DNA from: Candidatus Omnitrophota bacterium
Lineage (GTDB): Bacteria > Omnitrophota > Gorgyraeia > Aquiviventales > Aquiviventaceae
Direction: 5' to 3'
DNA: 64,000 bases
Assembly: GCA_016193175.1 (NCBI GenBank)
Contig: JACPSR010000142.1
Span: 54,332-118,331, forward strand
Positions 1,009-61,222 of this stretch are shown here, piece by piece (the first letter of the stretch is position 1; each line of letters begins with the position of its first letter). Position numbers and translations under genes: made by a program. The notes beneath the pieces were generated by a model. The model was not told the origin of the DNA. It ran no database searches and saw only the letters and a program-made list of their open reading frames with translations.

Positions 1009-1154
1009 GATCCCACGCCCTGCGACGGGCTGCCGCAGGCAGCCCCTGCAACGCGAGCAAGACGGACGGACATGGTGAGGCAAGCGTTCTTCAGTCTAGG
1101 TGGTGTTGCAGCGCCCCGCCCAAGGGCGGGGCAGCCGCAGGGCGTGGGATGATC
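1009..1154 (+). repeat. Palindromic junction element, copy 1 (146 bp)
   Basis: Left arm GATCCCACGCCCTG 1009-1022 and right arm CAGGGCGTGGGATGATC 1138-1154 (13-bp inverted repeat). Hairpins GGGCTGCC-GCA-GGCAGCCC 1027-1045 and CCCCGCCC-AA-GGGCGGGG 1114-1131. Inner stem CTGCAAC/GTTGCAG 1046-1052/1105-1111. The ATG of the next CDS (1149) lies in the right arm. Confidence 0.85.
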
Positions 1155-9093: not shown

Positions 9094-9094
9094 G

Positions 9095-12918: not shown

Positions 12919-12934
12919 GCTGCGAAGGGATCAT

Positions 12935-13837: not shown

Positions 13838-13843
13838 CCACGC

Positions 13844-14005
13844 GATCCCACGCCCTGGCACCGGTAGCGCCTCAATGACCACGAGTGAATACGCGGACAC
13901 CGCAGGCTGGTTCGGCACTGCCGAGGCCGGCCAGCAGATGAGACCAACCGGAGGAGCCGGCCAGGGCCACGCGATGCGTGGCCCGTGCCAGGGCGTGGGA
14001 TGATC
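13844..14005 (+). repeat. Palindromic junction element, copy 3 (162 bp, longest)
   Basis: Arms extend to 15 bp: CCCACGCCCTGGCAC 13847-13861 and GTGCCAGGGCGTGGG 13985-13999. Hairpin GGGCCACGC-GAT-GCGTGGCCC 13964-13984. The downstream ATG at 14000 lies in the right arm. Confidence 0.85.
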
Positions 14006-15762: not shown

Positions 15763-16831
15763 TCGACCCGGGTTGCTTCGCCGGGTCCTGAGGTATTACG
15801 AGGCATGCCAATTTCCGCATCGGGTGCTCGTGGCGGACTCGAGTGACGCGCCTGCGGCGGAGGCGAACCGGCAGATCGTGGAGGCCGTCTCCCGCGCCAT
15901 GCCGGTCGAGTACCGGCGGTATGATTCCGCTCTTGAGGTGCCGATGAAACTGGCGGAAGCGCTCGAAGGGATTCAGTCGACGTACGCGGTGATCGGATCG
16001 GATGACGATTTTTTTGTTCCGAGTGCACTAGAACGAGGGGTGGCGTTTCTGGAATCGCATCCCGACTACGCCCTGGCGCATGGTGAGTCGGCGTATTTCG
16101 TCTTAGAGTCTGACAGGATCGTTTCCGGCCGGTGTGTGGGGGTGGGGCGATATCTGCAACGCACGATCGATCACGCGAGCGGCTCGGAGCGATTGGCGGC
16201 GCATCTCGCGCAATACACCACCACCTTTTATTCAGTCCATCGGACGGAGCAACTGCGCAGGAATTGGCGTCGAGTGGCTGCGCTGCCTCTCGATCATTTG
16301 TTCGACGAGTTGCTCCCGTCATGCCTGTCGCTCATCGAAGGCAAGAGTCAGAAACTCGACGAACTCTACATGGTGAGGCAAATCCACTCTGCGCAAACAG
16401 CACGGACACGGGGTTCCAGAGGCCTCGGTTGGGTGATGGGTCAACGCTGGTCAGAACACTACGCACGATTTCAGGATCTGCTGGCTGAGGAGCTGGTTGG
16501 CCAGGACAGGATCACCATGGAGGCCGCGAGGGAAGTTGCCAAACAGGCGTTCCGGCCCTATGTAGCCCGATATGTGGCCAAAGAAGTGGGGAAGTCGCGT
16601 CAGTTGCACGATAGCGTCGCCATCAGGATCGGGGCGCGAGTGCGCAGGGTGGCACGAGGGATGCCTCTGCTGCGTTGGGGCTGGCACCTGGCACGCGCGA
16701 TCAGGCCGATGTCGCGCACAGCCATCTCGCTTGAGGCGTTGCTTCGCCAGACCTCGCGCTATCACGAAGGATTTATGCCGATCTATCGAGCGGTGACGGC
16801 GCAGAACGGTCACGAGGTCGGTGCGTCATGA
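15734..16831 (+). CDS. Glycosyltransferase family 2-like protein (paralog 1 of a tandem pair)
   Basis: LILPTYNRPGLLRRVLRYY N-terminus (GT-A style) and VADSSD. C-terminal SRYHEGFMPIYRAVT is shared with the next gene. Confidence 0.5.
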   Translation: MLSLILPTYNRPGLLRRVLRYYEACQFPHRVLVADSSDAPAAEANRQIVEAVSRAMPVEYRRYDSALEVPMKLAEALEGIQSTYAVIGSDDDFFVPSALERGVAFLESHPDYALAHGESAYFVLESDRIVSGRCVGVGRYLQRTIDHASGSERLAAHLAQYTTTFYSVHRTEQLRRNWRRVAALPLDHLFDELLPSCLSLIEGKSQKLDELYMVRQIHSAQTARTRGSRGLGWVMGQRWSEHYARFQDLLAEELVGQDRITMEAAREVAKQAFRPYVARYVAKEVGKSRQLHDSVAIRIGARVRRVARGMPLLRWGWHLARAIRPMSRTAISLEALLRQTSRYHEGFMPIYRAVTAQNGHEVGAS

Positions 16832-16941
16832 TCCGCCCTAGCAGTCCCGCCGAAGGCGGGGTCGCCCGACGACCACAGGATTGCAACAGCGGGTGCGACG
16901 GCTCCACCACGGGTGGAGCCCTGCCAGGGCGTGGGATGATC
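16828..16941 (+). repeat. Palindromic junction element, copy 4 (114 bp, left arm carries a 2-nt deletion)
   Basis: Left arm ATGATCCGCCCT 16828-16839 (CA missing) and right arm CAGGGCGTGGGATGATC 16925-16941. Hairpins CCCGCC-GAA-GGCGGG 16846-16860 and GGCTCCACC-ACG-GGTGGAGCC 16900-16920. Upstream stop TGA 16829-16831 lies in the left arm; downstream ATG 16936 lies in the right arm. Confidence 0.85.
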
Positions 16942-18096
16942 ACCCTGTGCGTTCCCACCTACAATCGTCCCGCGTTCATCGAGCGGTTGCTGCGCTACTA
17001 CGCAGCCACCAGCTCTCGGCACTGGATCTTCATCGGCGATTCCAGCGATCCCAATGATGCCAAGCGCACCCAGCGGGCGGTCGCGTCGTGGGGGGGGCGG
17101 CTCCAGGTGCGCTACGAGGCGTGCGCGGGCTTAAGTTCCTGTGCCGCCTTGGAACATGTCAGTCGCCTCATCATGACCCCCTATTGCGCCTTTTTAGGCG
17201 ATGACGATTTCCTCTGCACGAATGGGATCGAGCAGTGCCTGGAGTTTCTGGAGCGCCATCCCAGCTACGGGGCGGCTCATGGAAAAGGCCTCCTGTTCCA
17301 AACCGAAACCGGAGCTGCGTACGGACCGATTGGGATGGTCAGGCCGTATCCGCAGGTCGTGCTGAATGCGGATTCTGCTGCCGGGCGACTGCGAGACGTA
17401 TTGACCGCACGCGTCGGCGGGCTGCTGTATTCGGTGCATCGGACTCACACGTGGCGGGCCATGTTCGCGGGGATCGGGCGGCTCTCAGGCACGACGAATA
17501 CGAACATCTTCAAAGATGAGCTCATCGCGGTTTGCCTCTCCGCCATTCGCAACACGGTGCAGGAACTCGACTGTTTGTACCTGATTCGTCACACACATGA
17601 GGCGATCTATAAGTACCCCACTATCTACGATTGGGTGACAGATCCGATGTGGTTTCCGTCGTTCCAGGCATTCCGTGATCGCCTGGTCACGGAACTGATG
17701 GAGCAGGACCGTCTGCATGAGCCAGACGCGCAGGCCGTCTTCAAGGATGTGTTCTGGTCCTTTCTGGCTCATGTCCTCATGAACGGTTGGCAGCGATCCC
17801 GGCAACCAGCGCGAGTGAAACCAGTGAGTCGGCTGCAGGTTCTGGCCAAGCGCGTGCCGGGCCTACAGCGCGGGTGGCAAAAGGTGTTGGCCATTCGGCA
17901 GCGGTGGCAAGACGAACTGTCGCTGCCGGCGCTGCTTCACCCCTCCTCACCGTACCATGACGATTTCATGCCGATTTATGAGGCGGTGACCCACGCGCCC
18001 GCGGACGCACTCGTGGCGGTGGCGTCCGAGCGCCACCTGGTGTCCAGCAAGGGCGCGTTGGATGCTGGTGCGGTGCTGAGAGAGCCCCATGGCTGA
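16936..18096 (+). CDS. Glycosyltransferase family 2-like protein (paralog 2 of a tandem pair)
   Basis: MITLCVPTYNRPAFIERLLRYY, IGDSSD and C-terminal SPYHDDFMPIYEAVT parallel the preceding gene. The open frame extends to the ATG at 16828 through the repeat. Confidence 0.5.
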   Translation: MITLCVPTYNRPAFIERLLRYYAATSSRHWIFIGDSSDPNDAKRTQRAVASWGGRLQVRYEACAGLSSCAALEHVSRLIMTPYCAFLGDDDFLCTNGIEQCLEFLERHPSYGAAHGKGLLFQTETGAAYGPIGMVRPYPQVVLNADSAAGRLRDVLTARVGGLLYSVHRTHTWRAMFAGIGRLSGTTNTNIFKDELIAVCLSAIRNTVQELDCLYLIRHTHEAIYKYPTIYDWVTDPMWFPSFQAFRDRLVTELMEQDRLHEPDAQAVFKDVFWSFLAHVLMNGWQRSRQPARVKPVSRLQVLAKRVPGLQRGWQKVLAIRQRWQDELSLPALLHPSSPYHDDFMPIYEAVTHAPADALVAVASERHLVSSKGALDAGAVLREPHG

Positions 18097-27039: not shown

Positions 27040-28961
27040 GAACGATTGGGGTGGTGACGGTTGGTCGCTCAGATTACGGCATCTACGTGCCCATCCTGCG
27101 CGCCATTCAGCACGAGCCGGCTCTGCAGTTGCATCTCATCGTTAGCGGGATGCATCTGTTGGAGGAGTTCGGGTTGACGGTGCGCGAGATTGAAGCCGAC
27201 AGATTTCCGATCGGCGCGCGCGTGTTCCTCCCGTTGCCTGAGGACAGCCCCGAGGCGATCGCGGCGGCGATCGGTGCGGCGGTGACGGGGTTTGCTCGCG
27301 CGTATGCCTCGCAGCGGCCGGATCTGTTGATCGTGCTGGGGGACCGGTTCGAGATGTACGCCGCGGCGGTGGCGGCTTTGCCCTTGAAGATTCCGGTGGC
27401 GCATATCCATGGTGGGGAACTGACGCAAGGTGCGATGGATGACGCGCTGCGTCATTCACTGACGAAACTCAGCCATCTTCACTTCGTCGCGACGGAGGAG
27501 TATGCCCACCGCGTCATCCAACTCGGGGAAGAGCCCTGGCGCGTGACGGTGTCGGGTGCGCCGAGCTTGGATCACGTCGGGATGGTGCCGTTGCTGACGG
27601 CTGAAGCCCTGTGTAACCGGTTTGGATGGCATTGGGAGGCGGCGCCGCTACTGGTGACCTACCATCCGGTGACACTGGAGTACGAGCAGACCGAGTGGCA
27701 GATGACTGAACTCCTCGACGCCCTGGAGGAATGCAAGCGGCCCATGATCTTCACGATGCCCAATGCCGACATGCATGGCCGTGTGATTCGACGACTCCTC
27801 ACAGCGTTCATCGCCTCCCACCCCAATGCGCACGCGGTGGAGAATCTTGGAACCCAAGGCTATTTCAGCTTGATGGCCGCTGCCGCGGCGATGATCGGAA
27901 ACTCCTCCAGCGGTCTGATTGAAGCGCCGTCGTTCGGTCTGCCGGTCGTGAACATCGGGACGAGGCAACAGGGGCGGGTACGGGCCTCGAACGTCATTGA
28001 TGTGGGCTATAGTCGAACGGAGATCATCCGCGGCATTCGCCAGGCGCTGACGGCCGAGTTCCGAGCCGCCATCCGCCATGGCACCAACCCCTATGGCGAT
28101 GGGCACGCCGCCACGGTGATCGTGAACACCCTCAAGGCGATGCCGTTGGATGATCGGTTGATCAAAAAGCGATTCGTCGATCTGCCGGTGGAGAGGCCGG
28201 ACCGTGCTGACTCGCCGGCCCTCGTGCCAACTCGGGGTGAACCGATGGAACGGTGTGTGATCCTTGGGGGCGGAGGGCACGCCCGTGTGGTCATCGACAG
28301 CCTCCTCGCCAGCAAGCTGGCGGTGCCGTATGCCGTCGTTGACGCTGATCGGTCGCTGTGGGGCAAGGAGCTGTTGGGCGTGCCGGTCGTCGGGGACGAT
28401 GAGCGGCTGCGAGAACTGCGCTGTGAGGGGGTGACGCGATTCATCGTGGGGCTTGGCGGGGTCGGGGATAACGGCCCGCGACAGCAGCTCTTTTGTCTGG
28501 GAATGACCAGTGGTCTTGCCCCGCTGACGGTATGCCACCCGTCTGCGATTTGTTCACCCTCAGCGGTGATCGGTGAGGGATCCTTTCTCGCGCCGGCAAC
28601 CGTGGTGAACTCAGGGGCCGGACTGGGGGTGAATGTGATTGTGAATACGGGGGCGATCGTGGAACATGACTGCGCCATCGGTGACCACGTCCACCTCGCG
28701 ACCGGGGCAAGACTCTCAGGGCACGTCCTCGTCGGCGCGGGCGCCCATATTGGCGCCGGGGCCACCATTCGGCAGCGTGTGACGATCGGCGAGGGGGCGA
28801 TTGTTGGCGCGGGCGCGGTCGTCGTGAAATCGGTTGAGCCCTGGACGGTTGTGGTGGGCGTGCCCGCCCGAGTCCTGGAGCAAGAGCCGGCTGACGCTCA
28901 CGACAAAACGCATGACCGCCAACACGTCTCAGGGCGACAACAGAAGGAAGGGGCCCTATGA
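27036..28961 (+). CDS. neuC: Fusion protein: hydrolysing UDP/GDP-N-acetylhexosamine 2-epimerase (NeuC/LegG-like) with a NeuD/PglD-family hexapeptide acetyltransferase
   Basis: The N-terminal ~385 aa start IGVVTVGRSDYGIYVPILRAI. The C-terminal ~220 aa contain VILGGGGHARVVIDSL plus left-handed beta-helix repeats (GAHIGAGATIRQRVTIGEGAIVGAGAVV). Confidence 0.85.
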   Translation: MRTIGVVTVGRSDYGIYVPILRAIQHEPALQLHLIVSGMHLLEEFGLTVREIEADRFPIGARVFLPLPEDSPEAIAAAIGAAVTGFARAYASQRPDLLIVLGDRFEMYAAAVAALPLKIPVAHIHGGELTQGAMDDALRHSLTKLSHLHFVATEEYAHRVIQLGEEPWRVTVSGAPSLDHVGMVPLLTAEALCNRFGWHWEAAPLLVTYHPVTLEYEQTEWQMTELLDALEECKRPMIFTMPNADMHGRVIRRLLTAFIASHPNAHAVENLGTQGYFSLMAAAAAMIGNSSSGLIEAPSFGLPVVNIGTRQQGRVRASNVIDVGYSRTEIIRGIRQALTAEFRAAIRHGTNPYGDGHAATVIVNTLKAMPLDDRLIKKRFVDLPVERPDRADSPALVPTRGEPMERCVILGGGGHARVVIDSLLASKLAVPYAVVDADRSLWGKELLGVPVVGDDERLRELRCEGVTRFIVGLGGVGDNGPRQQLFCLGMTSGLAPLTVCHPSAICSPSAVIGEGSFLAPATVVNSGAGLGVNVIVNTGAIVEHDCAIGDHVHLATGARLSGHVLVGAGAHIGAGATIRQRVTIGEGAIVGAGAVVVKSVEPWTVVVGVPARVLEQEPADAHDKTHDRQHVSGRQQKEGAL

Positions 28962-30505
28962 TTCTGGTAACGATTGTCAGACCGCCCGTGGTGTTCTCCC
29001 GGCGGTCCTATAGCGTCGCCATCGTGCCCCCGCTTGGGCCCGCCTATTTAGCGGCGGCGCTGCGAACAGCAGGGCATCAGGTGAGGATCGTTGATGCCGT
29101 GGGGGGACGGATTTCGCACATCGGGGCCACCGCACGGCCGAACCTCCTCTATCAGGGGCTCTCGATCGACGAGATGATCGCCGGCATGGACCCCGAGACG
29201 CAGCTCATGGCCGTGTCGGCCATGTTCTCACAGGATTGGCCGCATGTCGAAGTCTTGATCGCGAAGATTGCGCAGCGGTTTCCAGAGGTCCCGATCGTGG
29301 TCGGAGGAGAACATGCCACCGCCGCGTGGGACTACATCTTGGACACCTCGCCAGCGATCACCTGTGTCGGTCTGGGCGAGGGGGAAGAGACCATTTGTGA
29401 TCTGGCCAGGTGGGTCGAACACGGAGGCGACCTGAGCGCCATCCCGGGCATCGCCTACCGGCAAGCCGGGCGTCCCGTCATGACGTCGCCGCGCAAACGG
29501 ATCATGGCCGTCGATGACATTCCCCCTCCGGCCTGGAATTTGGTTCCGCTCGAGGCCTATCTGGACGGCGGCTACGGCCACGGGGTCGATTTGGGACGGA
29601 GCATGCCGATCTTGGCCACACGCGGATGCCCATTCCAGTGCACGTTCTGCTCAAACCCGGCGATGTGGACGACCCGCTATGTGATGCGGGATGTCGGCAA
29701 AGTCGTCGATGAAATTGCGCGCTATCTGCGCGAGTATCGCGCGACGAACGTCGATTTTTACGACCTCACCGCCATCATCAGGAAAGATTGGATCATGAAG
29801 TTCTGCGACGAAATTCTGCACAGGCGGCTGACACTCACCTGGCAGCTTCCGAGCGGAACGCGCAGCGAAGCCCTTGACGCCGAAGCGCTGCGCAAAATGT
29901 TTGAGGCTGGATGCCGCAACCTGACCTATGCCCCTGAGAGCGGGTCCGAGCGGACATTGAAGGCGATCAAGAAAGAAGTGCGCTTGCCAAAGATGGTCAG
30001 ATCGATCAAAGCGGCGAAGCGCGCGGGCATTCATCTCAAGTGTAACCTGATCATCGGCTTTCCGAAGGAACGGCGCCGTGACCTCTTTCGCACGATCTGG
30101 TTTGCCTTGAAGATGGCCTGGATGGGCGTCGATGACGCCCCGCTCTTTCTGTTTTCGCCCTACCCCGGAAGCGAGTTGTATCACTATCTGCGCTCAACCG
30201 GAGCGATCCAGAAGATGGACAACGACTATTTTGAGTCGCTGCTCTGCTTTATGGATCTGTCCAAGTCGAGCCGCTATTGTGAGCGCATCGGGCCTCTGGA
30301 GCTCAACATCTACCGATGTGTCGGGATGTCCCTCTTCTATGTGCTGAGCTACCTGCGGCACCCCGCACGAATCGTGCGGACGATCCGGAACCTCTGGCAC
30401 AGCGAGTCAGCCACCGTGTTTGAGCAACGGCTCATTGAGATGAAGCGACGAGTGTCCATGGCGATGGCAGGCCGGTCGGTCGAATCGGCGGTGAATTCTC
30501 GATGA
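28958..30505 (+). CDS. B12-binding domain radical SAM enzyme (class B)
   Basis: N-terminal cobalamin-binding-like Rossmann region and radical SAM cluster motif RGCPFQCTFCSNP. Confidence 0.8.
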   Translation: MILVTIVRPPVVFSRRSYSVAIVPPLGPAYLAAALRTAGHQVRIVDAVGGRISHIGATARPNLLYQGLSIDEMIAGMDPETQLMAVSAMFSQDWPHVEVLIAKIAQRFPEVPIVVGGEHATAAWDYILDTSPAITCVGLGEGEETICDLARWVEHGGDLSAIPGIAYRQAGRPVMTSPRKRIMAVDDIPPPAWNLVPLEAYLDGGYGHGVDLGRSMPILATRGCPFQCTFCSNPAMWTTRYVMRDVGKVVDEIARYLREYRATNVDFYDLTAIIRKDWIMKFCDEILHRRLTLTWQLPSGTRSEALDAEALRKMFEAGCRNLTYAPESGSERTLKAIKKEVRLPKMVRSIKAAKRAGIHLKCNLIIGFPKERRRDLFRTIWFALKMAWMGVDDAPLFLFSPYPGSELYHYLRSTGAIQKMDNDYFESLLCFMDLSKSSRYCERIGPLELNIYRCVGMSLFYVLSYLRHPARIVRTIRNLWHSESATVFEQRLIEMKRRVSMAMAGRSVESAVNSR

Positions 30506-32025
30506 CGCGAGGAGGAGGTTGGCGGCTCCCGCTGCTGCTCTATCTGGCGGGCCTGCTCCATTGGATCGGCTTCCTGTATCTCGATGTCACGCCCTCCGGC
30601 CAGGAGCGGGAACTGGTGTCCATAGCGCTCCGGAGTCCTGAGACGCTCTTGAAGCGTCCGAACTTCGGGATGGAAGACGGCGTCTACATCGGCGACGTCT
30701 GGTTCGTCTATGAGCGCATGCTCACGGCGCTCCAGCAGGCGGTTCGCAGCCGCCAGATCCCCTACCATCTGCCTGGCCTGAGCGGCTATGAGATGATGCC
30801 AACCACCGCCTCGCCGGTCGGCGATCGGCTCTTCGGTTTTCCCAATGGCTGGCCCTGGTCGCCGGAGGCGCTCCTCTTGGCCGTCCTGGATCTTCCAACC
30901 TTCGTCATCGTGACGTGGCTCATCATGTACTCGGTGGGATTTGCGGGGTGCCTCTTGATCCGGCGCCAGTACAGTCTGGGGCCGATGGCCTTCACGTTCC
31001 TGGCGGTGCTGTTCCATCTGAACGGTTGGATCACCACCCACATGACGACCAAGATGCCCGATAACACCGGCTACTATCTGAGCCCGTATCTCGTGCTGCT
31101 CCTGCTGAGGGCCGGGGAAGTGGCCCCCACGGATCGCTACGCGCAGCGGCGTCTCGGGTTATGGATCGGGTTGGTGATGGCGCTGATGTGGTGGCAGGGG
31201 TCGTGCCATCCCTTCATCCACTGGCTCACCATGCTGGGCTTCTGGGGCATTGTGAATTGGAGGAAATGGCGGGTCACGGTGGTGAGTGTGGTGAGCGCGT
31301 TTGCCCTGGCGGCGTTTCGCGTGATTCCGCCTGCGCTCAGTTGGGGCATGAAGCACCGCTATCATGTGGACAATCCCGCGATCATGGGGTTCTGGTCATT
31401 CGATCAATACATCGACGCGCTCGCGGTGTGCCACCCGTTCATCCCCGACGGGGGGTGGGAGCAATTCAATTGCTACGTCAGCGTGTTTGGCTTATGGGCG
31501 ATTCTCTATCTCGCGTTCTGGGCACCATGGAACGGCTCGAGGTGGGTGCGCCTGCGTCCCTGGCAGTCCTTGCTCATTCCCTCCGTGATCTTGGCGGTGA
31601 TGTCGTTCCGTCACATGAAGAGCGTGCTCATTCCGAATTGGATCCCCCTCTTTAACGCCGAGGCCTACACAGGACGATACATGATGATCCCCCTGGTCGT
31701 GTGGATCATTGTCGCGAGTATCAACCTCCAGGGCGCGGTCGAGGCGTTCTGGTCGCAGCGGCGGCTGCGATGGCTCATGGTCAGCGGGCTTGGCGTGATC
31801 GCGGCGTCCTTGCTGAACCATTCGCGCTTGTGGCGCATCTGGATGGCGACAAAGTTTGCGCACTGGGGTGGCTATGGGCCCACGCTGCCTGCGCGGTTGG
31901 CGAACGACATGACCGACCGCCTGTACATCAACGCGGTCGACCTGAGTCTGGGCATCAGCCTGGTCGCCTTGGTCGTGGTGATCGCCTTGTTGGTCGTGCC
32001 GCGCAAGCGACAGGGCGTGGGATGA
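30502..32025 (+). CDS. Polytopic membrane protein of unknown function (polymerase, ligase or GT-C candidate)
   Basis: 507 aa with many hydrophobic helices. ATGA junctions on both sides. The last codons QGVG* coincide with a solo junction-element arm. Confidence 0.55.
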   Translation: MTRGGGWRLPLLLYLAGLLHWIGFLYLDVTPSGQERELVSIALRSPETLLKRPNFGMEDGVYIGDVWFVYERMLTALQQAVRSRQIPYHLPGLSGYEMMPTTASPVGDRLFGFPNGWPWSPEALLLAVLDLPTFVIVTWLIMYSVGFAGCLLIRRQYSLGPMAFTFLAVLFHLNGWITTHMTTKMPDNTGYYLSPYLVLLLLRAGEVAPTDRYAQRRLGLWIGLVMALMWWQGSCHPFIHWLTMLGFWGIVNWRKWRVTVVSVVSAFALAAFRVIPPALSWGMKHRYHVDNPAIMGFWSFDQYIDALAVCHPFIPDGGWEQFNCYVSVFGLWAILYLAFWAPWNGSRWVRLRPWQSLLIPSVILAVMSFRHMKSVLIPNWIPLFNAEAYTGRYMMIPLVVWIIVASINLQGAVEAFWSQRRLRWLMVSGLGVIAASLLNHSRLWRIWMATKFAHWGGYGPTLPARLANDMTDRLYINAVDLSLGISLVALVVVIALLVVPRKRQGVG

Positions 32026-34812: not shown

Positions 34813-35889
34813 ATGTACACGGACCTGACCACGTTGTGCATCGGACGAGCGAGTTCGTTACGAGCCGCCATAGCCCAGATGGACCGCAGCCGATTTGGCA
34901 TCGTGCTGGTGACCGACGACCAGCGACGCCTGGTGGGCACGATCACCGATGGGGATATCCGCCGCGCCATTTTGGCGAACGTGGATCTTGAGCAATCGGT
35001 GAACGTGCTCCTGGCGCGAAAGGCAACAACTCGCTTTGCGAAGCCCATCACGGCCGCGGCGGGCTCCGATCCCAATCTCTACCTGGCACTCCTGAAACAG
35101 CACAACATCCTTCACCTTCCGCTGATCGACGATGAGCAGCACGTCGTGGGGATGGTGACGAGGGATGAATTTCTGCCCAACGAGGTGCTGCCGCTCCACG
35201 CAGTGGTCATGGCGGGAGGGCTCGGTAGTCGTCTGCACCCCCTCACCGAAGAGCTCCCGAAACCGATGCTGCCGATCGGCAATCGTCCATTGCTCGAGAT
35301 CATCATCGCGCAGCTACGAGAGGCCGGCATTCGTCGCGTCCAGGTCACGACGCACCACAAGCCGGAGAAGATTGAGGAGCATTTTGGCGATGGGAAGGAC
35401 TTCGGGATCAACCTCTCCTATGTCGCAGAAGACCGACCGTTAGGAACAGCGGGGGCCCTGGGATTGCTCGGCGTTCCCAAGGAGACGACGTTGGTCATGA
35501 ACGGCGATATCCTGACGCAGGTGGATTTCCGGGCGATGCTGGTCTACCACCGGGAGTACGGGGCGGACCTCACGATGGCAGTGCGCCAGTACGACCTCAA
35601 GGTGCCCTACGGCGTGGTCGAGTGCGAGGATTCGGTGGTCCGTTCCCTCAGCGAAAAACCCACGGTGGGATTTTTTGTCAACGCGGGCATTTATCTGCTG
35701 GAGCCTCCCGTCTACCAATTCATCCCGAACGGCCAACCGTTCGACATGACGGAGTTGATCCAGTGCCTGCTCAAGGCGGGGAGGATGGTCGTCAGCTTCC
35801 CGGTCCGGGAATACTGGCTTGATATCGGAGAGCACGCGGGGTATGAGCGGGCAGAGCAAGACGTTCGCAACGAGAAGGTGCGGGTATGA
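34813..35889 (+). CDS. CBS-domain sugar-phosphate nucleotidyltransferase (PtmE/HddC-like)
   Basis: Tandem CBS region (LVGTITDGDIRR, VVGMVTRDEF), then NTP-transferase motif AVVMAGGLGSRLHPLTEELPKPMLPI. Confidence 0.8.
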   Translation: MYTDLTTLCIGRASSLRAAIAQMDRSRFGIVLVTDDQRRLVGTITDGDIRRAILANVDLEQSVNVLLARKATTRFAKPITAAAGSDPNLYLALLKQHNILHLPLIDDEQHVVGMVTRDEFLPNEVLPLHAVVMAGGLGSRLHPLTEELPKPMLPIGNRPLLEIIIAQLREAGIRRVQVTTHHKPEKIEEHFGDGKDFGINLSYVAEDRPLGTAGALGLLGVPKETTLVMNGDILTQVDFRAMLVYHREYGADLTMAVRQYDLKVPYGVVECEDSVVRSLSEKPTVGFFVNAGIYLLEPPVYQFIPNGQPFDMTELIQCLLKAGRMVVSFPVREYWLDIGEHAGYERAEQDVRNEKVRV

Positions 35890-36002
35890 TCCCACGCCCT
35901 AGCTGGGCTCCGCCTAAAGGCGGAGCCGCGAAACGGTGCCCCGTGTTTCTGTCATTGATGTTTCGCCCCACCAATAGGCGGGGCAGCCAGGGCGTGGGAT
36001 GA
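35886..36002 (+). repeat. Palindromic junction element, copy 5 (117 bp)
   Basis: Left arm ATGATCCCACGCCCT 35886-35900 and right arm CAGGGCGTGGGATGA 35988-36002. Hairpins GGCTCCGCC-TAAA-GGCGGAGCC 35906-35927 and CCCCACC-AATA-GGCGGGG 35966-35983. Inner stem CGAAAC/GTTTCG 35929-35934/35960-35965. Upstream TGA 35887-35889 and downstream ATG 35999 lie in the arms. Confidence 0.9.
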
Positions 36003-36970
36003 AGGTGCTGCTAACAGGCGGGGCGGGCTATGTGGGGTCAGTCGTGGCGCACGACTTGCTGTCCCGTGGACATGAAGTGCGGGTCGTTGATATGTTGCTG
36101 TACGGAGGCCAGGGGCTGTTGGGGTTGTACCAGGATGAGCGATTCAGTTTCTTGGGTGGGGATCTCCGGTCTGCACAGCTCGTCGAATTGGCCCTGCACG
36201 GTATGGACGCCGTGGTCCATTTGGCGGCGATCGTGGGCGACCCGGCCTGCGCGCGCCAGCCTGAGCTCGCGCGTGCCGTGAACCTCGATGCTTCCCTCCA
36301 GCTCTTCCGCGCGAGCTGCGCGCGAGAGGTTGAGCGGTTCGTATTCGCCTCGACCTGCAGCAACTACGGTCGGATGTCGAACCCGTCTGTCTGGCTCACC
36401 GAGGAGTCCGAACTGCGTCCCGTCTCGCTGTACGCCCAAACCAAAGTGGAGGTGGAACAAGCCTTCTTGAGTCCCTCGGCGGCTTCTCGGCCCGTCACGA
36501 CCGTCCTCCGGTTCGCGACGGTGTTTGGGGTGTCACCTCGGATGCGGTTTGATCTCACGGTGAACGAGTTCACGATGGAGCTGCTGACAAAACGCAAGCT
36601 CACGATCTACGGCGCGCAGTTCTGGCGGCCCTACCTCCACGTCCGGGATGCGGCGCGGGCCATCGGGTTGGTGCTGGAGAGTCCGCTCGACAAGATCGCC
36701 AACCAGGCGTTCAACGTGGGCGATGCCAATCAGAACTACCAGAAGGGGGCATTAGCGGAGCTGATCCGCGCGCAGATCGGCAACCACGCGCGGATTGAGC
36801 GCGTTGAGAAAACGGAGGATCCGCGGGATTACCGGGTCTCATTTGACAAGATTCAACGGGGGTTGGGTTTCCAGATCACCCGGACGGTCGAGCAGGGCGT
36901 TCAAGAGCTCATCGAGGCCATCTCCTCCGGCGTCATCACCGAATGCGATCACTCACGGTATCGAAACTAG
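35999..36970 (+). CDS. NAD-dependent sugar epimerase/dehydratase (extended SDR; LegB-like dehydratase candidate)
   Basis: MKVLLTGGAGYVGS and catalytic YAQTK. Confidence 0.8.
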   Translation: MKVLLTGGAGYVGSVVAHDLLSRGHEVRVVDMLLYGGQGLLGLYQDERFSFLGGDLRSAQLVELALHGMDAVVHLAAIVGDPACARQPELARAVNLDASLQLFRASCAREVERFVFASTCSNYGRMSNPSVWLTEESELRPVSLYAQTKVEVEQAFLSPSAASRPVTTVLRFATVFGVSPRMRFDLTVNEFTMELLTKRKLTIYGAQFWRPYLHVRDAARAIGLVLESPLDKIANQAFNVGDANQNYQKGALAELIRAQIGNHARIERVEKTEDPRDYRVSFDKIQRGLGFQITRTVEQGVQELIEAISSGVITECDHSRYRN

Positions 36971-40316: not shown

Positions 40317-40943
40317 ATGGGGAACGCGCACAGACCGGACATCCGTCGAGCCGTGTTTCTCGATCGGGATGGCACCATTGCCCAGTACCGGGAGTACTGT
40401 TGTCGCCCGCAGGATTTTCGATTGCTCCCAGGGGTGGGCCACGCCATTCGGACATTGAATCACGCGGGGCTGGCGGTGATCGTCATGACCAACCAATCGG
40501 CGATTGCGCGAGGCTGGTTGACGGGGGACGTCTTGGAGCAGATTCACCGAAAAATGCGCCGTGCCCTCAGTCGCGTGGGGGCGCGGATCGACGCCATCTA
40601 CGTCTGTCCGCACCATCCGGACGACGGATGTGCGTGTCGAAAACCTGGGATCGCGATGCTCCAGCAGGCTGCAAAGGACTTTGAGCTGTCCTTGGCGTCC
40701 TCCTATGTGGTGGGAGACCGGATGCTGGATGTGCTCTCGGGGCGCGCCGCGGGAAGTCAGACTATCCTTGTCCGCTCAGGCCACAGACTGGAACCGACCA
40801 ACGGCGTTACGCCTGACCACGAGGCGCAGGACCTGAGCGAGGCCGTGGCGTGGATCCTTCAACAGGAGGGGCTGCAAGCGGGACGGGGCAGGCCTCTTGC
40901 CGCGGCGCGAGGTCCGAGCGACCATGCGGGAGTGCAGAGATGA
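40317..40943 (+). CDS. gmhB: D-glycero-D-manno-heptose 1,7-bisphosphate phosphatase (HAD-IIIA)
   Basis: AVFLDRDGTI, VMTNQSAIARG and Zn-binding CPHHPDDGCACRKP. Confidence 0.85.
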   Translation: MGNAHRPDIRRAVFLDRDGTIAQYREYCCRPQDFRLLPGVGHAIRTLNHAGLAVIVMTNQSAIARGWLTGDVLEQIHRKMRRALSRVGARIDAIYVCPHHPDDGCACRKPGIAMLQQAAKDFELSLASSYVVGDRMLDVLSGRAAGSQTILVRSGHRLEPTNGVTPDHEAQDLSEAVAWILQQEGLQAGRGRPLAAARGPSDHAGVQR

Positions 40944-42607
40944 CATTGGACACGCGAGTGGAGACTCCTCCAACCTTGGCAGACGAACCCTCTCATCCTG
41001 ACGCTGAAGGATCCACCCAGACATCTGCAAGGGCGCTCGAGCAACTGGAAGCTGCCTTGGACGCGGTGCGTCGTCAGTGCCCCTGGCTTCCGGTGTTCGC
41101 AATTCGATGGATGCACTTAAAGCATCCCGTGCACCCCGTGCAGCTGCTCCTCCTGCGCGAACATCTGGGTGTTAGTGGAGAGACACCCGATCGTACCGAG
41201 CGACCTCGGTGGGTATTCACCCAGTGGATTCGCCCAAGACTCCTGAGGCGACTCGGACAATGTGTGATCTATGCGATCTACGTCAGTTGCCGGCTGGTCA
41301 GGCTTCAGATTGCGCTGCGTCGTCAGGTGCGGGCCCTCAGGCGACAGCCGTTTGAGGTGCTGATCAAAACGTGCTGCTTTGAAGCAGAGCGGCCGGCGGA
41401 TGGGAGCGATTTTTATTTCGGTGATTTGCAGCAACGATTGGTCAGGCGTGGCGTGCGAACACTGCTCTTGTCCGGGAATGTGCGGCGTGGCAGTTGGACG
41501 GCGTTTGGCCGGGCCCATCTCGCCGCGCCGCCGCTGGCACGGCTGCCGGAGTTAGCGCTGCTGTCTCCACTGGCGCCACTTCGTCTGATGCTGGCGCAAG
41601 TTCGGGCCGCCATCCGGTTGCGTCGCAGGGTGCGGGAGACCGACGATCCGTTGATCAAACACATCACCCTGCTCGCCAGCCACGATTGTCTGGCGCCGGA
41701 TACCACGCGGGCTGGACTGTATTGCTGGGTCATGAAGCGTGCCGTTCAGACGTGGCGTCCTCGGGCCTTCGTGACCCTCTACGAGGGACACGCCTGGGAG
41801 GCGTGTGCGCGATGGGGCGTGAAGGCTCACGATCCGTCCTGTCAAACCGTGGGGTATCAACATACCGCCATCTTTCCGGAATCGCTGTCGTTAACGTCTC
41901 CATCGAAGGCGCCGACAGACCGTCTCGTGCCTGACACCATTCTGGCCTTGGGGCAGATTCCGTTGGACTTCATGGCGTCTGGACACGCAGATCATCACGT
42001 CCGTCTGGTGCGGTTTGGGAGTTTTCGCTATCGCCATGCGAATGTCGATCGACCGGCGGATCGAACCCGTCGTGTCATCCTCGTCGTTCCCGAAGGGTTT
42101 GCGTCGGAGGTCAAGGTGCTCTTTGAGTTCGCCGTGGCCTGCGCCAAGCGGTTGCCCCGCTATACCTTTGTGCTCCGATGCCATCCAGAAGTGCCCATGG
42201 CCGTGGCGGTCCGATTGATGCCAGGGGCACTGACCAGCCAACCGAACATTGAGCTTTCGGACCGTCGTCTGATCGAGGAGGATTTTGCCCGCTCGTCAGC
42301 CGTGTTGTATCGCGGATCCTCGACGGTCCTCTATGCGGTCCTTCACGGCCTGTTGCCGCTGTACGTCCATATGCCCACCCTGCTGGATCGTGACCCGCTG
42401 TACCGCATGCCGGCCTGGCGCCGACGCTGTGTCAGTCCTGATCATCTCGCGACGCAGTTGGCGTGGCATGAGCAAGCCCCGATGGAGCGCTTGGAAGAGG
42501 AATGGGCGCGGGCGGTGCGGTATGTCACGGATTATACCGGCCCGGTGACCGATGAGCAGATCGACGCGTGGCTTACCACGGTCGGTCTCAACGGGAGCGC
42601 GCGCTGA
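40940..42607 (+). CDS. Large hypothetical protein (555 aa), possible GT-B-like surface carbohydrate biosynthesis protein
   Basis: No firm motif. C-terminal SAVLYRGSSTVLYAVLHGLLPLYVH resembles the GT-B C-terminal region. Its stop TGA 42605-42607 opens junction element copy 6. Confidence 0.45.
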   Translation: MTLDTRVETPPTLADEPSHPDAEGSTQTSARALEQLEAALDAVRRQCPWLPVFAIRWMHLKHPVHPVQLLLLREHLGVSGETPDRTERPRWVFTQWIRPRLLRRLGQCVIYAIYVSCRLVRLQIALRRQVRALRRQPFEVLIKTCCFEAERPADGSDFYFGDLQQRLVRRGVRTLLLSGNVRRGSWTAFGRAHLAAPPLARLPELALLSPLAPLRLMLAQVRAAIRLRRRVRETDDPLIKHITLLASHDCLAPDTTRAGLYCWVMKRAVQTWRPRAFVTLYEGHAWEACARWGVKAHDPSCQTVGYQHTAIFPESLSLTSPSKAPTDRLVPDTILALGQIPLDFMASGHADHHVRLVRFGSFRYRHANVDRPADRTRRVILVVPEGFASEVKVLFEFAVACAKRLPRYTFVLRCHPEVPMAVAVRLMPGALTSQPNIELSDRRLIEEDFARSSAVLYRGSSTVLYAVLHGLLPLYVHMPTLLDRDPLYRMPAWRRRCVSPDHLATQLAWHEQAPMERLEEEWARAVRYVTDYTGPVTDEQIDAWLTTVGLNGSAR

Positions 42608-42719
42608 TCCCACGCCCTCGCAGCCTCGCCTTCGGCGAGGTCGCCAACGAGACGAAATGTCAAGAGGGGCTGGCGACGGCTCCGCCTACGGCGGAGCCCT
42701 GCCAGGGCGTGGGATGATG
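42605..42719 (+). repeat. Palindromic junction element, copy 6 (115 bp)
   Basis: Left arm TGATCCCACGCCCT 42605-42618 and right arm CAGGGCGTGGGATGATG 42703-42719. Hairpins CCTCGCC-TTC-GGCGAGG 42624-42640 and GGCTCCGCC-TAC-GGCGGAGCC 42678-42698. Inner stem GTCGCCA/TGGCGAC 42640-42646/42671-42677. Confidence 0.9.
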
Positions 42720-54243: not shown

Positions 54244-55941
54244 ATGTGGCTCTTCATGATCCTCTGCAGCCTCCTGTATACGGTGACGCGCTTCACCGGG
54301 CTGGAATACCTGTCGCTGTACTCTGGCGGTGCGTTTCAGGTCCTGCATCCGGAGAGCTTTCCTGTCGATCGCTACATGCCGCCGTTTCGGGCCACGCTGC
54401 TCTCGCTCTATTATGTCGTCGTGCGGTTGGTGGGCGACCTCTGGCTGGACGATCGCTTTACGATTGTGGTGTACGGCGGGCTCGTCCTCATGGCCGTCGT
54501 GGTCTTGGACAAGACGGCACGGCTCTTCGGCGCAGACCGTCCCGCAGCACGTGTTGCGATGCTCTCCCTGATGCTGACGATTGGCAACGGCTTTAAACGC
54601 ACGCAGTTTGTGAGCGCGTTGGAGTTTAACCCCACGACCATGGCAGGACCCGTGGCGTACTGGTTGTTCTACCTGGTGCTTGCCGGAAAGCGCCCAGCCC
54701 TCATTTTCGCTGTCATGGCCCTTCTGGCGTCCATCTCCATCAAGAACGCATGGTTGCCAATCCTGATTGGCCTGGCGATCCTGTTCAAGGAACGCTTGAC
54801 ACCCCGCGGCAAATGGCGTGTGGGGTTGAGCGTCCTGGGACTGATCGCGGCGGCCCTTGGGGTGTATTACGCGGTGGTCAGGCTGCAGAATCCAAACCAG
54901 GTGGCCCTGTTCGACTTCATCCTGGAGGAGATGGAACGAGAAGAAGCCAACCCCTTCTGGGACGCCTGGTGGAGTAACCTGGCGTTTCTGGTGGTGTGCG
55001 CCGGAGCCTGGTGGGTCAGGCTTCCTTCCGTCGTGCTTGAACAACGGGTGAAGATGACCGCTGTCGTTGGGGCTACCGTCTGGTTGCTTGGTGGGGTGTA
55101 CCTGTCCTACACGCCGGACATGCTCAAGATCCCCTACGTGGTCCCCTTTGATGTCGAGAGGGCCCTGGTGTGGCCGCAGTATGTCCTCCTCGTCGCGATC
55201 GCGGCCTCGGTGTTGAGGCGTCTCGACTCGGCCTCCTCATGGAGAGGTGTCTGGGTTTGCATCGCGGTGCTGTTGGCGATCTATCTGACGCCATTCCACC
55301 TGAAGCGGGCCAGCACGGTCGTCGTCCTCTTGGGGCTGATGTGGCTGTGGCGGTACGTGTCTGAACGGCGGCGGGCGATCGATCCGTCCTGGCGGCTGCG
55401 GATCGTCGCTGGCGCGCTCTGCGCCACGACGTTGTCCACATTGGTCTCGTGGACGGTCCATCGGATGCCAGCCCTTCAGTTTTTGGCTGAGCATGGCATC
55501 ATGGGGGACAACCCGGGAGCCAAGTGGGTGGGAATCAACGAGTACATCCGGGAAAGGACACCCCCCAACTCGCTGGTCCTCGCCTTCTCGATGGGGGACT
55601 ATCCATGGCGGCGTCCTCAACGACTCACGCTCGAGACGTCCTTGCGCACGCGGACCGGTCGGTCTATGCCATTTGGATCTCCCGTGGTGTTCGTGTTCGA
55701 TTACCTCTCCATTGGCTGGTCCGTCCACGAACGTGGGCCACATCATGACCGGCTCATCGACGCATGGGAACGGCACGACGTGACTGGCGTCACGGCGAGC
55801 CTGAACGCCATTGGAGCGCCTGACTATCTGGTGGTCCCGACGACGAAGGCACAGTGGCTTCAAGACCGCTCGAGCTTTCCCTACCGGATCGAGACGGTCA
55901 TTCGCGAATTCACGATCCTGCGAAAGGCCATCTCTGCGTGA
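54244..55941 (+). CDS. Polytopic membrane protein with C-terminal soluble domain (GT-C or polymerase candidate)
   Basis: 565 aa, about 10 or more hydrophobic helices followed by a ~150-aa hydrophilic C-terminus. Confidence 0.55.
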   Translation: MWLFMILCSLLYTVTRFTGLEYLSLYSGGAFQVLHPESFPVDRYMPPFRATLLSLYYVVVRLVGDLWLDDRFTIVVYGGLVLMAVVVLDKTARLFGADRPAARVAMLSLMLTIGNGFKRTQFVSALEFNPTTMAGPVAYWLFYLVLAGKRPALIFAVMALLASISIKNAWLPILIGLAILFKERLTPRGKWRVGLSVLGLIAAALGVYYAVVRLQNPNQVALFDFILEEMEREEANPFWDAWWSNLAFLVVCAGAWWVRLPSVVLEQRVKMTAVVGATVWLLGGVYLSYTPDMLKIPYVVPFDVERALVWPQYVLLVAIAASVLRRLDSASSWRGVWVCIAVLLAIYLTPFHLKRASTVVVLLGLMWLWRYVSERRRAIDPSWRLRIVAGALCATTLSTLVSWTVHRMPALQFLAEHGIMGDNPGAKWVGINEYIRERTPPNSLVLAFSMGDYPWRRPQRLTLETSLRTRTGRSMPFGSPVVFVFDYLSIGWSVHERGPHHDRLIDAWERHDVTGVTASLNAIGAPDYLVVPTTKAQWLQDRSSFPYRIETVIREFTILRKAISA

Positions 55942-56780
55942 TGGTGAACGAGCGTGTTCAGGTGAAACGAGAAAAGCGGATGGATGTGGCAGATCCCCTG
56001 GCTGTGGCGGAACGGTTGCGTCGCCGCTTGAAGCAGCGGGCGCTCACCTTCGGGGCGTGGATCTCGATCGGGCATCCGGAGATCGCCAGCATCTTCGCCG
56101 GCGCGCGGGGGGACTTCGTGGGGTTCGACCTGGAGCATACGACGATCGATTTTGCGACAGCCCAGCAGATCATCCGGGCCTGCCACGAGTTTGGCCGCGC
56201 GTGCCTGCCACGCATTGGCCCGGGGAATCTGGAGCAGCTCAGTCGCCTGCTCGATGCCGGGGCCGACGGCGTGGTCGTCCCGCAGGTGCAGGGTCGTGAT
56301 GACATCGAGCGCGTCGTCGATGCGCTGCGGTACCCGCCGGCGGGCCGGCGTAGCTTCGGGGTCGCCGCGGCCCATCAGTACGGGCGCGCGTTTGACGCGT
56401 ATGTGCGGTCGGCGAACGCCTCCCTGTCGCTCATCGTGCAGGTCGAAACGATTGGGGCGGTGGAGCAGGTCAAGCCGATTGTGGCGCATCCGGATGTGGA
56501 TGGCGTGATGGTCGGACCCTATGACCTTTCTGGGTCCCTTGGCATTCCAGGGAAGCTGTCCGATCCCCGCGTCACCGAGGCAGCCGGGCGCGTGGTGACG
56601 GCGTGCGCCTCGGCCGGCAAGAGTTGCGGCACGCACCTCGTGCGCCCAAGCCTTGAGGGGATCCGGCGGCATCTCGCCGACGGGTTCACGTTTCTCGTCC
56701 TGGGCTCCGATGTCTTCAACCTGGCGCAGCGAAGCGAAGAGCTCGATGCGATGATCGAGGCGTGCCATGCCGACCGTTGA
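55941..56780 (+). CDS. HpcH/HpaI-family class II (pyruvate-dependent) aldolase
   Basis: TFGAWISIGHPEIASIFAGARGDFVGFDLEHT and VQVETIGAVEQV blocks are typical of 2-keto-3-deoxy-acid aldolases. Confidence 0.8.
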   Translation: MVNERVQVKREKRMDVADPLAVAERLRRRLKQRALTFGAWISIGHPEIASIFAGARGDFVGFDLEHTTIDFATAQQIIRACHEFGRACLPRIGPGNLEQLSRLLDAGADGVVVPQVQGRDDIERVVDALRYPPAGRRSFGVAAAHQYGRAFDAYVRSANASLSLIVQVETIGAVEQVKPIVAHPDVDGVMVGPYDLSGSLGIPGKLSDPRVTEAAGRVVTACASAGKSCGTHLVRPSLEGIRRHLADGFTFLVLGSDVFNLAQRSEELDAMIEACHADR

Positions 56781-57531
56781 GGAACGCTTCAATCTGCGCG
56801 GAAAAGTCGCCGCGATCATTGGGGGCGCGGGGTACCTGTGTTCCACGCTGGCGGAGGCGATGGCGGAAGCCGGCATATCGGTCTTCATCCTCGACGTGGC
56901 TGAGCCGGTGCGGGGCAACCCGGTACCGACGGGTACCATGCTGCCGTGCCTTCGCTGCGATGTCACCTCGAAGGATGATCTCATTCGCTGTCGGGACCAG
57001 ATTCAGCGAGAGCACGGCCGGATCGATATCCTGCTCAACGGCGCCGGGACAAACGCCCCCACCCCATTCTTCGACATCTCGCTCGAGGAATTCGACCGCA
57101 TCATGCGAGTGAACCTGCTGGGAACCCTCCTAAGTTGCCAAGTGTTCGGCGAAGTTATGGTGCGCCAGCGTGCGGGGAGCATCATCAATTTCACCTCTGT
57201 ATCCAAAGACCCCCCCCTTTCGAAAGCGTTCGTCTACTCCACGGCCAAGGCGGGCGTGGCCAATCTGACGCAGAACCTGGCGCGGGAGTGGGCGCCGTTC
57301 AACGTGCGGGTGAACGCGCTGCGGCCAGGGTTCTTCCCAACCGCCTGGAGCATGCGGCACTTCATTGACGAGCCGCGCAAGGCCGCCATCCTGAACCACA
57401 CTCCCATGGGTCGGTTTGGTCAGCCCGAGGAGCTCATCGGCGCGGTGCTGTGGCTGGCCTCCGATGCGGCCAGCTTCGTGACTGGTTCCATCGTGACGGT
57501 GGATGGCGGTTTCACGGCGATGACCATTTAA
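56767..57531 (+). CDS. Short-chain dehydrogenase/reductase
   Basis: AAIIGGAGYLCSTLA, YSTAKAG catalytic motif and C-terminal VTGSIVTVDGGFTA. Confidence 0.85.
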   Translation: MPTVEERFNLRGKVAAIIGGAGYLCSTLAEAMAEAGISVFILDVAEPVRGNPVPTGTMLPCLRCDVTSKDDLIRCRDQIQREHGRIDILLNGAGTNAPTPFFDISLEEFDRIMRVNLLGTLLSCQVFGEVMVRQRAGSIINFTSVSKDPPLSKAFVYSTAKAGVANLTQNLAREWAPFNVRVNALRPGFFPTAWSMRHFIDEPRKAAILNHTPMGRFGQPEELIGAVLWLASDAASFVTGSIVTVDGGFTAMTI

Positions 57532-58289: not shown

Positions 58290-58299
58290 GACGCCACGC

Positions 58300-61213: not shown

Positions 61214-61222
61214 GGTCGGCCC

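Follow-up and report, generated by a model that had tools for sequence, protein, structure and literature searches.

Mobile palindromic elements at stop/start overlaps of high-GC Omnitrophota genomes, probably carrying a translated relay mini-cistron

A stretch of 64,000 nucleotides from a Candidatus Omnitrophota assembly (GCA_016193175.1, contig JACPSR010000142.1, positions 54,332 to 118,331; hereafter the window) contains six full copies, named c1 to c6, and one solo right arm of a family of short palindromic elements situated at gene junctions. We consider it likely that these are non-autonomous MITEs (miniature inverted-repeat transposable elements) of high-GC Omnitrophota, which occupy stop/start overlaps and preserve the coupling of the flanking genes by means of a translated relay mini-cistron. 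The elements are mobile, duplicate 3 bp of their target, lie on start codons, regenerate the upstream stop and the downstream start, follow a 3n+2 length rule and avoid stop codons in one frame. Judging from these sequence features, the element-spanning small open reading frame (mini-ORF) is probably translated, relaying ribosomes to the downstream gene and so rescuing coupling.

Element anatomy and distribution

Elements of the family measure about 105-155 bp, with a core range of 84-194 bp across copies, and have no coding capacity for a transposase. Perfect 11-bp terminal inverted repeats (TIRs), TCCCACGCCCT on the left and AGGGCGTGGGA on the right, are present in 57-58 copies, and the core encloses three hairpins between them. 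Variant arms (TCCCCCCACCT, TCCCACGACCT, TCCCACAATCT and others) are seen in some subfamilies, where both sides vary jointly. Within the window, the 12-mer ATCCCACGCCCT and its complement returned six arm pairs and one solo arm, and all of the copies listed by an earlier sequence-only reading of this DNA were thereby relocated. The paired pattern TCCCACGCCCT-N-AGGGCGTGGGA gave four matches in the window versus none in 100 dinucleotide-preserving shuffles.

A scan of one genome per species (185,579 species) yielded 60 loci. Forty-six of these came from six Omnitrophota metagenome-assembled genomes (MAGs) and one MAG labelled Planctomycetales, and these seven MAGs, all Omnitrophota or members of the Planctomycetes-Verrucomicrobia-Chlamydiae (PVC) group, supplied 57 copies flanked by a target-site duplication (TSD). 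The other matches of the scan, in Pseudomonas, Xanthomonas, Caulobacteraceae and others, have the same 11-mer arms and belong to a different family with longer outward inverted repeats and no TGA flanks. In Pseudomonas and Xanthomonas (L050:7253-7954, L014:1261-1644, L013:7682-7806) they are part of repeats resembling repetitive extragenic palindromes (REPs), in which GGCAAGCCAGGC directly precedes TCCCACGCCCT and GCGTGGCTTGTC directly follows AGGGCGTGGGA, with internal tandem sub-repeats; similar single palindromes were seen in Hyphomonadaceae and Caulobacteraceae (L012, L025).

The paired-arm pattern had no match among viral contigs, and full-text literature searches returned no description of this family or of any MITE targeting ATGA. 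Nothing in the whole window matched Rfam at the gathering thresholds, in agreement with the earlier statement that the sequence was not recognised. The best sub-threshold match was to a plant miRNA hairpin model (34.5 bits versus a threshold of 150), and an E-value search with c5 gave meaningless hairpins only.

Target-site duplication and mobility

The terminal TGA triplets, included by the sequence-only reading in a conserved inverted repeat of 12-15 bp, are in fact direct repeats and constitute a 3-bp TSD outside the inverted repeat. The flank pairs are TGA/TGA in 31 copies, TCA/TCA in 22 (the other-strand equivalent), CCA/CCA in two and TAA/TAA in one, and because both flanks vary jointly in the rare pairs the terminal triplets are assigned to the duplication and not to the element. 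The duplicated triplet is mostly TGA and rarely TGG or TAA; where it is TGG, in two copies, the start codon reads ATGG. A diverged member of only 84 bp with arms TCCCACGACCT and AGGTCGTGGGA (L056:7252-7335) shows a TAA duplication at a TAATG junction; the target can therefore be T-A-A, and the arms co-vary. At another locus (L031:234-554) three elements lie in direct tandem, each pair having one common TGA, as expected if new copies enter the duplication of a resident copy. The first of the three is the flipped form of the copy at L016:2445, the sole clear opposite-orientation pair found.

Orthologous sites differ in being filled or empty, and the elements are therefore mobile. Positions 54318-61281 of the window are 80-91% identical to a locus (L055) of the close relative JAUYPJ, an Omnitrophota MAG, and provide the clearest pair. 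The empty junction at 60014 of the window reads ...gccgATGAtcaac... and its filled JAUYPJ counterpart ...ctcgATGA(110-bp core)TGAcgacc..., with nearly identical flanks in the alignment; TGA is present only once at empty sites. Conversely, the site of c5 is unfilled elsewhere: four orthologous loci from metagenomes (L067-L069 and L078, about 70% identity) have just ATGA there, and JAUYPJ (L147) has TGATG. The JAUYPJ junction between a HAD hydrolase gene and a 527-aa ORF (L147:14004-14104) holds a 101-bp element with variant TIRs, while the counterpart at 40940 of the window is bare; this pairing is by gene order only, the flanks being too diverged for nucleotide alignment. Finally, c5 is identical at 106 of 110 positions (96%) to an element at a different locus of JAUYPJ (L055:1265-1374), as compared with 80-91% for the host genes. 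The earlier reading was right about the family and its placement and missed the TSD, the element-spanning mini-ORF and the mobility across Omnitrophota genomes.

Placement on start codons

For the analysis of placement each copy was oriented such that its duplication reads TGA, and ORFs of 100 codons or more were regarded as long. Of 56 copies, 45 have A immediately before the TGA (seven have G, two T and two C), so that the site before insertion was a start codon followed by A. More generally, insertions target start codons whose next base is A or G, in most cases within an ATGA or GTGA stop/start overlap. Insertion rebuilds both codons: the left TGA retains the upstream stop, and the last A of the element together with the duplicated TG forms the downstream ATG.

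Both the stop of one long ORF and the start of the next were found at the duplication in 31 of the 57 copies, a configuration shared by 1.8% of all TGA sites in the same loci. A long-ORF start only was found in 15 copies (17% of TGA sites), a stop only in five (7%) and neither in six (74%). A long ORF thus begins at the element's last A plus TG in 46 of 57 copies (81%) versus about 19% of TGA sites, and in those 46 the TGA polarity is that of the sense strand of the flanking genes. Placement is far from random, whether by insertion preference or by retention, and the sequence-only view of a MITE- or REP-like palindromic family that is tied to gene junctions and carries the downstream start is borne out; neither the orientation nor the location of the copies is arbitrary. 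Several right flanks start with TCCC, as does the left end of the element, which hints that the target may resemble joined element ends.

These counts bear on one alternative, namely an ordinary selfish MITE, unadapted to translation, that inserts at any T(G/C)A, survives only in overlaps because insertions elsewhere in such gene-dense genomes would be lethal, and has inherited its open frame and 3n+2 length from a few founders. The window consists of an uninterrupted operon with little intergenic DNA and some 25-30 free NTGA junctions among 1,989 TGA/TCA sites, so that selection alone explains the placement there. Across the loci, however, a crude neutral model with 644 non-coding T(G/C)A sites and about 165 junction sites predicts roughly 20% of the copies at junctions, as opposed to the 54% observed at a stop plus start and the 81% exactly on a start. 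Moreover, copies are positioned exactly on the ATG even of genes that have no overlapping upstream gene (L053, L017, L024:5579, L033:5714, L015).

An open frame with a 3n+2 length rule

Of the 57 cores, 47 have a length of 3n+2, and this rule is obeyed by 12 of the 18 distinct length classes (104, 107, 110, 113, 125, 128, 131, 140, 149, 152, 155 and 194 bp). Read from the left start codon, 42 of the 57 copies contain no stop in this frame until the right TGA, on the far side of the element. The product, MIPRP...(R/Q)QGVG followed by the stop, is 35-65 codons long and its frame is the sole ORF in the element. Stop density amounts to 0.0023 per codon in this frame versus 0.011-0.021 in the other five, an approximately 7-fold depletion. 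Three variant-TIR copies outside the search-pattern selection conform to the same length and open-frame rule; the 84-bp variant at L056:7252 (length 3n, in-frame stops) breaks it.

Of the 46 oriented 3n+2 cores, 43 are open, compared with 18.7 on average and at most 29 when interiors are shuffled. That GC-rich DNA is often open by chance, as are about 40% of shuffled interiors, favours a selfish MITE. Against it, the depletion of stops persists in the variable central third (2/601 versus 66/2997), in loops that are not inherited sequence, and twelve different length classes are all 3n+2. Taken with the placement data, an ordinary selfish MITE is an unlikely explanation.

A tetramer resembling a Shine-Dalgarno site lies upstream of 19 of 54 left ATGs, of 39 of 128 unoccupied junctions and of 15% of random positions, and the left start codons look ordinary. 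The mini-ORF peptides are conserved only within arms and stems, which makes no case for a functional peptide.

A relay model for the insertion

After insertion the original start codon with its Shine-Dalgarno site stays at the left edge of the element. According to the relay model, ribosomes ending the upstream gene would re-initiate at this old ATG on the mini-cistron, melt the very stable four-way junction (-70 to -100 kcal/mol) in the course of translation, stop at the new ATGA and start again on the downstream gene, and translational coupling would thereby survive the insertion. Because each ATG directly adjoins the outer helix, 30S subunits should load poorly by themselves, and expression should become strictly coupled. 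In the right arm, an AGGG located 7 nt ahead of the ATG is a possible weak Shine-Dalgarno site.

One may go further and envisage a mobile lineage adapted to coupled-gene overlaps, in which an undescribed transposition mechanism recognises start codons in a strand-specific manner and the relay cistron is itself selected for frame, 3n+2 length and stop-free loops, such that the expression of the host operon suffers no harm. We regard this as a serious possibility, short of a probable one; if true, it would represent a selfish element whose fitness depends on being translated.

Several observations weigh against this overall explanation. Fifteen of the 57 copies, including c1, c6 and the whole 103/106-bp subfamily, have no intact mini-ORF, hence the relay is not obligatory. 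The copies share ancestry, so that the counts given above are not fully independent. As to membership among MITEs, the elements show TIRs, a flanking TSD, small size without a transposase and orthologous sites that are filled in some genomes and empty in others. A transposase with matching ends was sought in the window (where the sequence-only reading had already noted the lack of one), in the 60 genome loci, in Omnitrophota loci amounting to about 390 kb and in 10 kb of the source contig on either side, and none was found; these 10-kb flanks contain neither a transposase nor further copies. When an autonomous partner was sought in all loci among pairs of arms 220-6000 bp apart whose TSDs match, each pair proved to be two separate MITEs. 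Further difficulties arise from the strand symmetry of the fold and from the fixed orientation of the copies, both considered below.

Orientation, fold and the remaining alternatives

Between close pairs, the orientation of the interior relative to the sense strand is the same in 94 cases and opposite in one. Fixed orientation of this kind is not accounted for by a cut-and-paste enzyme that treats T-N-A targets symmetrically. In subfamily A the reverse frame contains stops in 10 of 13 copies; subfamily C, however, is forward in 11 of 11 cases even though 7 of 10 copies have an open reverse frame, and selection for the open frame can be only a partial cause. The fixed orientation may reflect a strand-specific mechanism or some selective factor.

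A strand-specific mechanism is offered by REP- or REPIN-like elements moved as single-stranded DNA by an HUH transposase (a REP-associated tyrosine transposase, RAYT, or an IS200/IS605-type enzyme) 3' of TGA, the right TGA then being element-borne. This would suit the strongly strand-specific orientation, the nearly perfect Watson-Crick helices with few G-U pairs, as for DNA hairpins, and the presence of the same 11-mer arms within REP-like palindromes of Pseudomonas and Xanthomonas. We nevertheless judge it improbable, as the flanks co-vary in three independent copies (TGG/TGG twice, TAA/TAA once), fitting target duplication, as neither a conserved GTAG-type tetranucleotide nor a RAYT or TnpA gene is present in the loci examined, and as the proteobacterial matches are of the different family described above. 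The elements are accordingly not classed as REPs or REPINs, given their co-varying 3-bp duplication and the lack of a RAYT gene in these loci.

The predicted RNA folds of the six window copies comprise an outer helix and three hairpins, i.e. a four-way junction; free energies lie between -62 and -99 kcal/mol and z-scores between -3.6 and -9.0. The four-helix arrangement put forward earlier is thus predicted for every copy, including c3, where it had been traced in part. For the 13 independent insertions of subfamily A, a four-way junction pairs 98.4% of cells, with 11 compensatory pairs; shuffles gave 4.8 +/- 1.5 (none of 500 attained 11) and slid controls 0-3. The order of the helices varies between subfamilies, and the subfamily B copies c4 and c6 have an interior that is flipped relative to that of c5 (subfamily A). 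Sense and antisense minimum free energies show no difference (25 versus 30 copies, p = 0.62), and the sense strand is not enriched in G-U pairs (79 sense versus 114 antisense). Stability and G-U usage being strand-symmetric, maintenance of the fold as sense RNA was dropped as an explanation; there is no evidence of selection on the RNA fold itself, and the palindromes look to be maintained at the DNA level, or to be merely symmetric.

The same symmetry speaks against a structured RNA selected by the host at cistron boundaries, whether as mRNA stabiliser, RNase III processing site or translational gate. Such a role would account for very stable folds with covariation support, for a start codon at the foot of the outer helix and for the concentration of six copies in one glycan operon. 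It would not account for the variable presence of the elements at orthologous junctions of close relatives, for the TSD and tandem pile-ups (L031) or for an interior sequence and helix order that vary by subfamily, and we give it little credence.

Integron-like attC sites delimiting gene cassettes, suggested by conserved ends around a variable branched centre, a length of 100-155 bp, gene-boundary location and single polarity, are highly improbable, since the RYYYAAC...GTTRRRY core sites are absent, copies split a subunit pair of one enzyme (E1 alpha/beta), up to ten genes lie between consecutive copies, and relatives retain the same conserved gene pairs, simply without the 113 bp, as befits simple insertions.

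The copies in the window and their neighbourhood

Coordinates of the copies and related features are compiled in Table 1. The canonical copy is c5, whose mini-ORF coincides exactly with the interval proposed for the whole element in the sequence-only reading. Its left TGA is the stop codon of the NTP-transferase gene (34813-35889), and its final A (35999) with the TG of the right duplication forms the ATG of the epimerase gene (35999-36970).

Table 1. Positions of element copies, mini-ORFs, the solo arm and unoccupied junctions in the window.
Feature	Left duplication	Core or interval	Right duplication	Strand	Remarks
c1	1008-1010	1011-1149 (139 bp)	1150-1152	+	subfamily E
c2	12803-12805	12806-12915 (110 bp)	12916-12918	+	right arm with one mismatch
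c3	13843-13845 (flank, reads CGA)	13846-14000 (155 bp)	14001-14003	+	
c3 mini-ORF		13830-14003		+	ATG 13830 overlaps upstream stop (ATGAGTGA); ends with TGA 14001-14003
c4	16829-16831	16832-16936 (105 bp)	16937-16939	+	subfamily B
Solo right arm		32012-32022		+	AGGGCGTGGGA, then TGA 32023-32025
c5	35887-35889	35890-35999 (110 bp)	36000-36002	+	subfamily A; TIRs TCCCACGCCCT and AGGGCGTGGGA, three internal hairpins
c5 mini-ORF		35886-36002		+	MIPRPSWAPPKGGAAKRCPVFLSLMFRPTNRRGSQGVG, then stop; original start codon to right TGA; ATGA overlap with both neighbours
Unoccupied ATGA junction		40940-40943		+	between HAD hydrolase gene and 555-aa ORF
c6	42605-42607	42608-42714 (107 bp)	42715-42717	+	subfamily B
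Unoccupied ATGA junction		60014-60017		+	orthologous JAUYPJ junction filled: 110-bp element plus extra TGA

The other copies depart from this pattern in various ways. Copy c1 lies between the genes for the alpha and beta subunits of an E1 dehydrogenase, at the GTGA start of the beta gene; its mini-ORF is broken (length 3n+1, internal stops) and provides no intact relay. Copy c2 entered an in-frame ATG-A seven codons ahead of the original stop of a methyltransferase/tetratricopeptide repeat (TPR) gene, and the C-terminus of this protein now consists of c2-encoded residues. The terminal TGA of the c3 mini-ORF overlaps ATG 14000 of the transketolase-N gene. The left arm of c4 has lost 2 nt, and its mini-ORF is thereby fused in frame to the family 2 glycosyltransferase (GT2) gene that follows downstream (ORF 16828-18096). 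The target of c6 was a CTGATG junction, which leaves a left end without a start codon and hence no intact relay.

Most of what the earlier reading had reported for individual copies holds. The upstream TGA stop is contained in the left end of c4, c5 and c6, the upstream gene stops earlier in c1 (TAA 986-988) and c3 (TGA 13835-13837), and the upstream ORF does run through c2 (11419-12918). The statement that the right arm always carries the downstream ATG applies with the exception of c2, whose right ATG opens only a 7-codon remnant; going by its N-terminal MRVVVTG motif, the downstream epimerase most likely starts at ATG 12941. Similarly, a single orientation of all copies is correct for the TGA polarity relative to the genes, though not for the interiors, those of c4 and c6 being flipped with respect to c5.

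The window represents one run of plus-strand genes exceeding 60 kb, with 62% GC and enzymes of sugar-nucleotide and glycan metabolism. Nearly all genes of positions 1-64000 are on the plus strand, with approximately 25-30 NTGA stop/start overlap junctions, making for an unusually long and tightly coupled operon. It includes LegC/NeuB-type nonulosonic-acid genes, many epimerases, methyltransferases, radical-SAM genes and glycosyltransferases, and genes identical to those of the window are present in groundwater assemblies.

At the solo arm, the upstream 507-aa ORF terminates within the arm (...RQGVG, then stop) and the next gene starts at ATG 32022. This ORF and a B12/radical-SAM gene (515 aa) occupy 28958-32025, between syntenic blocks that are adjacent in a distant relative (L084). 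The arm with its TGA (32012-32025) forms the right boundary of this extra block and may be a remnant of element-mediated gene gain or deletion.

Pairs of elements bracketing one or two genes were observed in the window (12806-14000) and elsewhere (L147:14004-15827, L024:3451-5685, L033:4728-5817); the pair in the window, c2 and c3 on either side of one 300-aa epimerase gene, is arranged like a composite transposon. A second MAG of the same population (JACPTW, GCA_016192565.1) has flanking genes identical to those of the window (L148:15411-18993 versus window 6559-10141). Within the operon the gene content differs in a sugar isomerase ORF (149 aa versus 169/185 aa), in a gap of 359 nt and in a gene of 229 aa that is not the same; this is strain-level variation in the glycan cluster.

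Significance and comparison with known systems

Stop/start overlaps are among the most constrained sites of compact genomes. The element occupies them with neither gene broken and with coupling probably unbroken. To our knowledge, coupled overlaps as a niche for selfish DNA were previously illustrated only by mycobacterial interspersed repetitive units (MIRUs) and, inside genes, by Rickettsia palindromic elements (RPEs). A natural portable module of about 107 nt for any ATGA junction would be useful for studies of termination and re-initiation and for operon engineering. The 3-bp duplication, the start-codon placement and the fixed orientation despite perfectly symmetric ends together pose a mechanistic puzzle. 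On the practical side, the elements break assemblies (the Logan contigs L002 and L006, from sister samples, begin inside c5, 28 nt before the epimerase start), mislead gene callers (e.g. a 499-aa ORF through c2 and a 422-aa ORF through c4) and could serve, by their presence or absence, as strain markers for uncultured Omnitrophota.

MIRUs reportedly are intercistronic within operons and have been proposed to keep translational coupling. They are said to contain a small ORF in the same direction whose ends overlap the stop and start of the flanking genes, and to form tandem direct repeats of 46-101 bp without TIRs, TSD or a multi-hairpin fold. The intercistronic small ORF overlapping the neighbours' stop and start is the feature shared, and the only one; the Omnitrophota elements differ in being single copies with inverted ends, a TSD and a multi-hairpin fold, and are not MIRUs.

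Transposons of the IS1031 type (IS5 family) and of the PIF/Harbinger group make 3-bp T-N-A duplications, which provides a lead only. The likeness lies in this duplication, here TGA, TCA and TAA; as to differences, the TIR tips TCCCAC... are not known to match those of these groups, TGG targets occur here and no related transposase was found.

Correia/NEMIS elements of Neisseria share the size of about 100-150 bp, the TIRs, a short TSD, many dispersed copies, the lack of a transposase gene and co-transcription with neighbours (see the review PMC3184786). Their duplication is TA, and they are mostly found between genes or upstream of them, in positions that are not codon-exact. The Omnitrophota element, unlike these, duplicates a sense-strand TGA exactly at the start codon, rebuilds stop and start and is open from end to end in a frame of 3n+2.

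With REP/BIME/REPIN sequences and their RAYTs (PMC3116915, PMC2817692) the elements have in common GC-rich palindromes within operons, a strand-specific single-strand mechanism as a candidate for both and, in the REP-like repeats of Pseudomonas, the same 11-mer. REPINs, however, have no TSD, possess a conserved tetranucleotide, are linked to RAYTs and are found after genes rather than on start codons (PMC3116915, PMC2817692).

RPEs, as described in PMC3184786 (citing Ogata et al. 2000), are palindromic mobile elements that survive in translated sequence by staying open in the host frame; they insert in frame inside genes, join the protein and have a length of 3n. By comparison, the Omnitrophota element is a separate intergenic relay cistron with a core of 3n+2 (47 of 57 copies) for which gene fusion, as in c2 and c4, is exceptional, and it is not classed as an RPE. 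In its behaviour the element appears to resemble MIRUs and RPEs most closely; what is new is the open frame across the element with its 3n+2 length rule.

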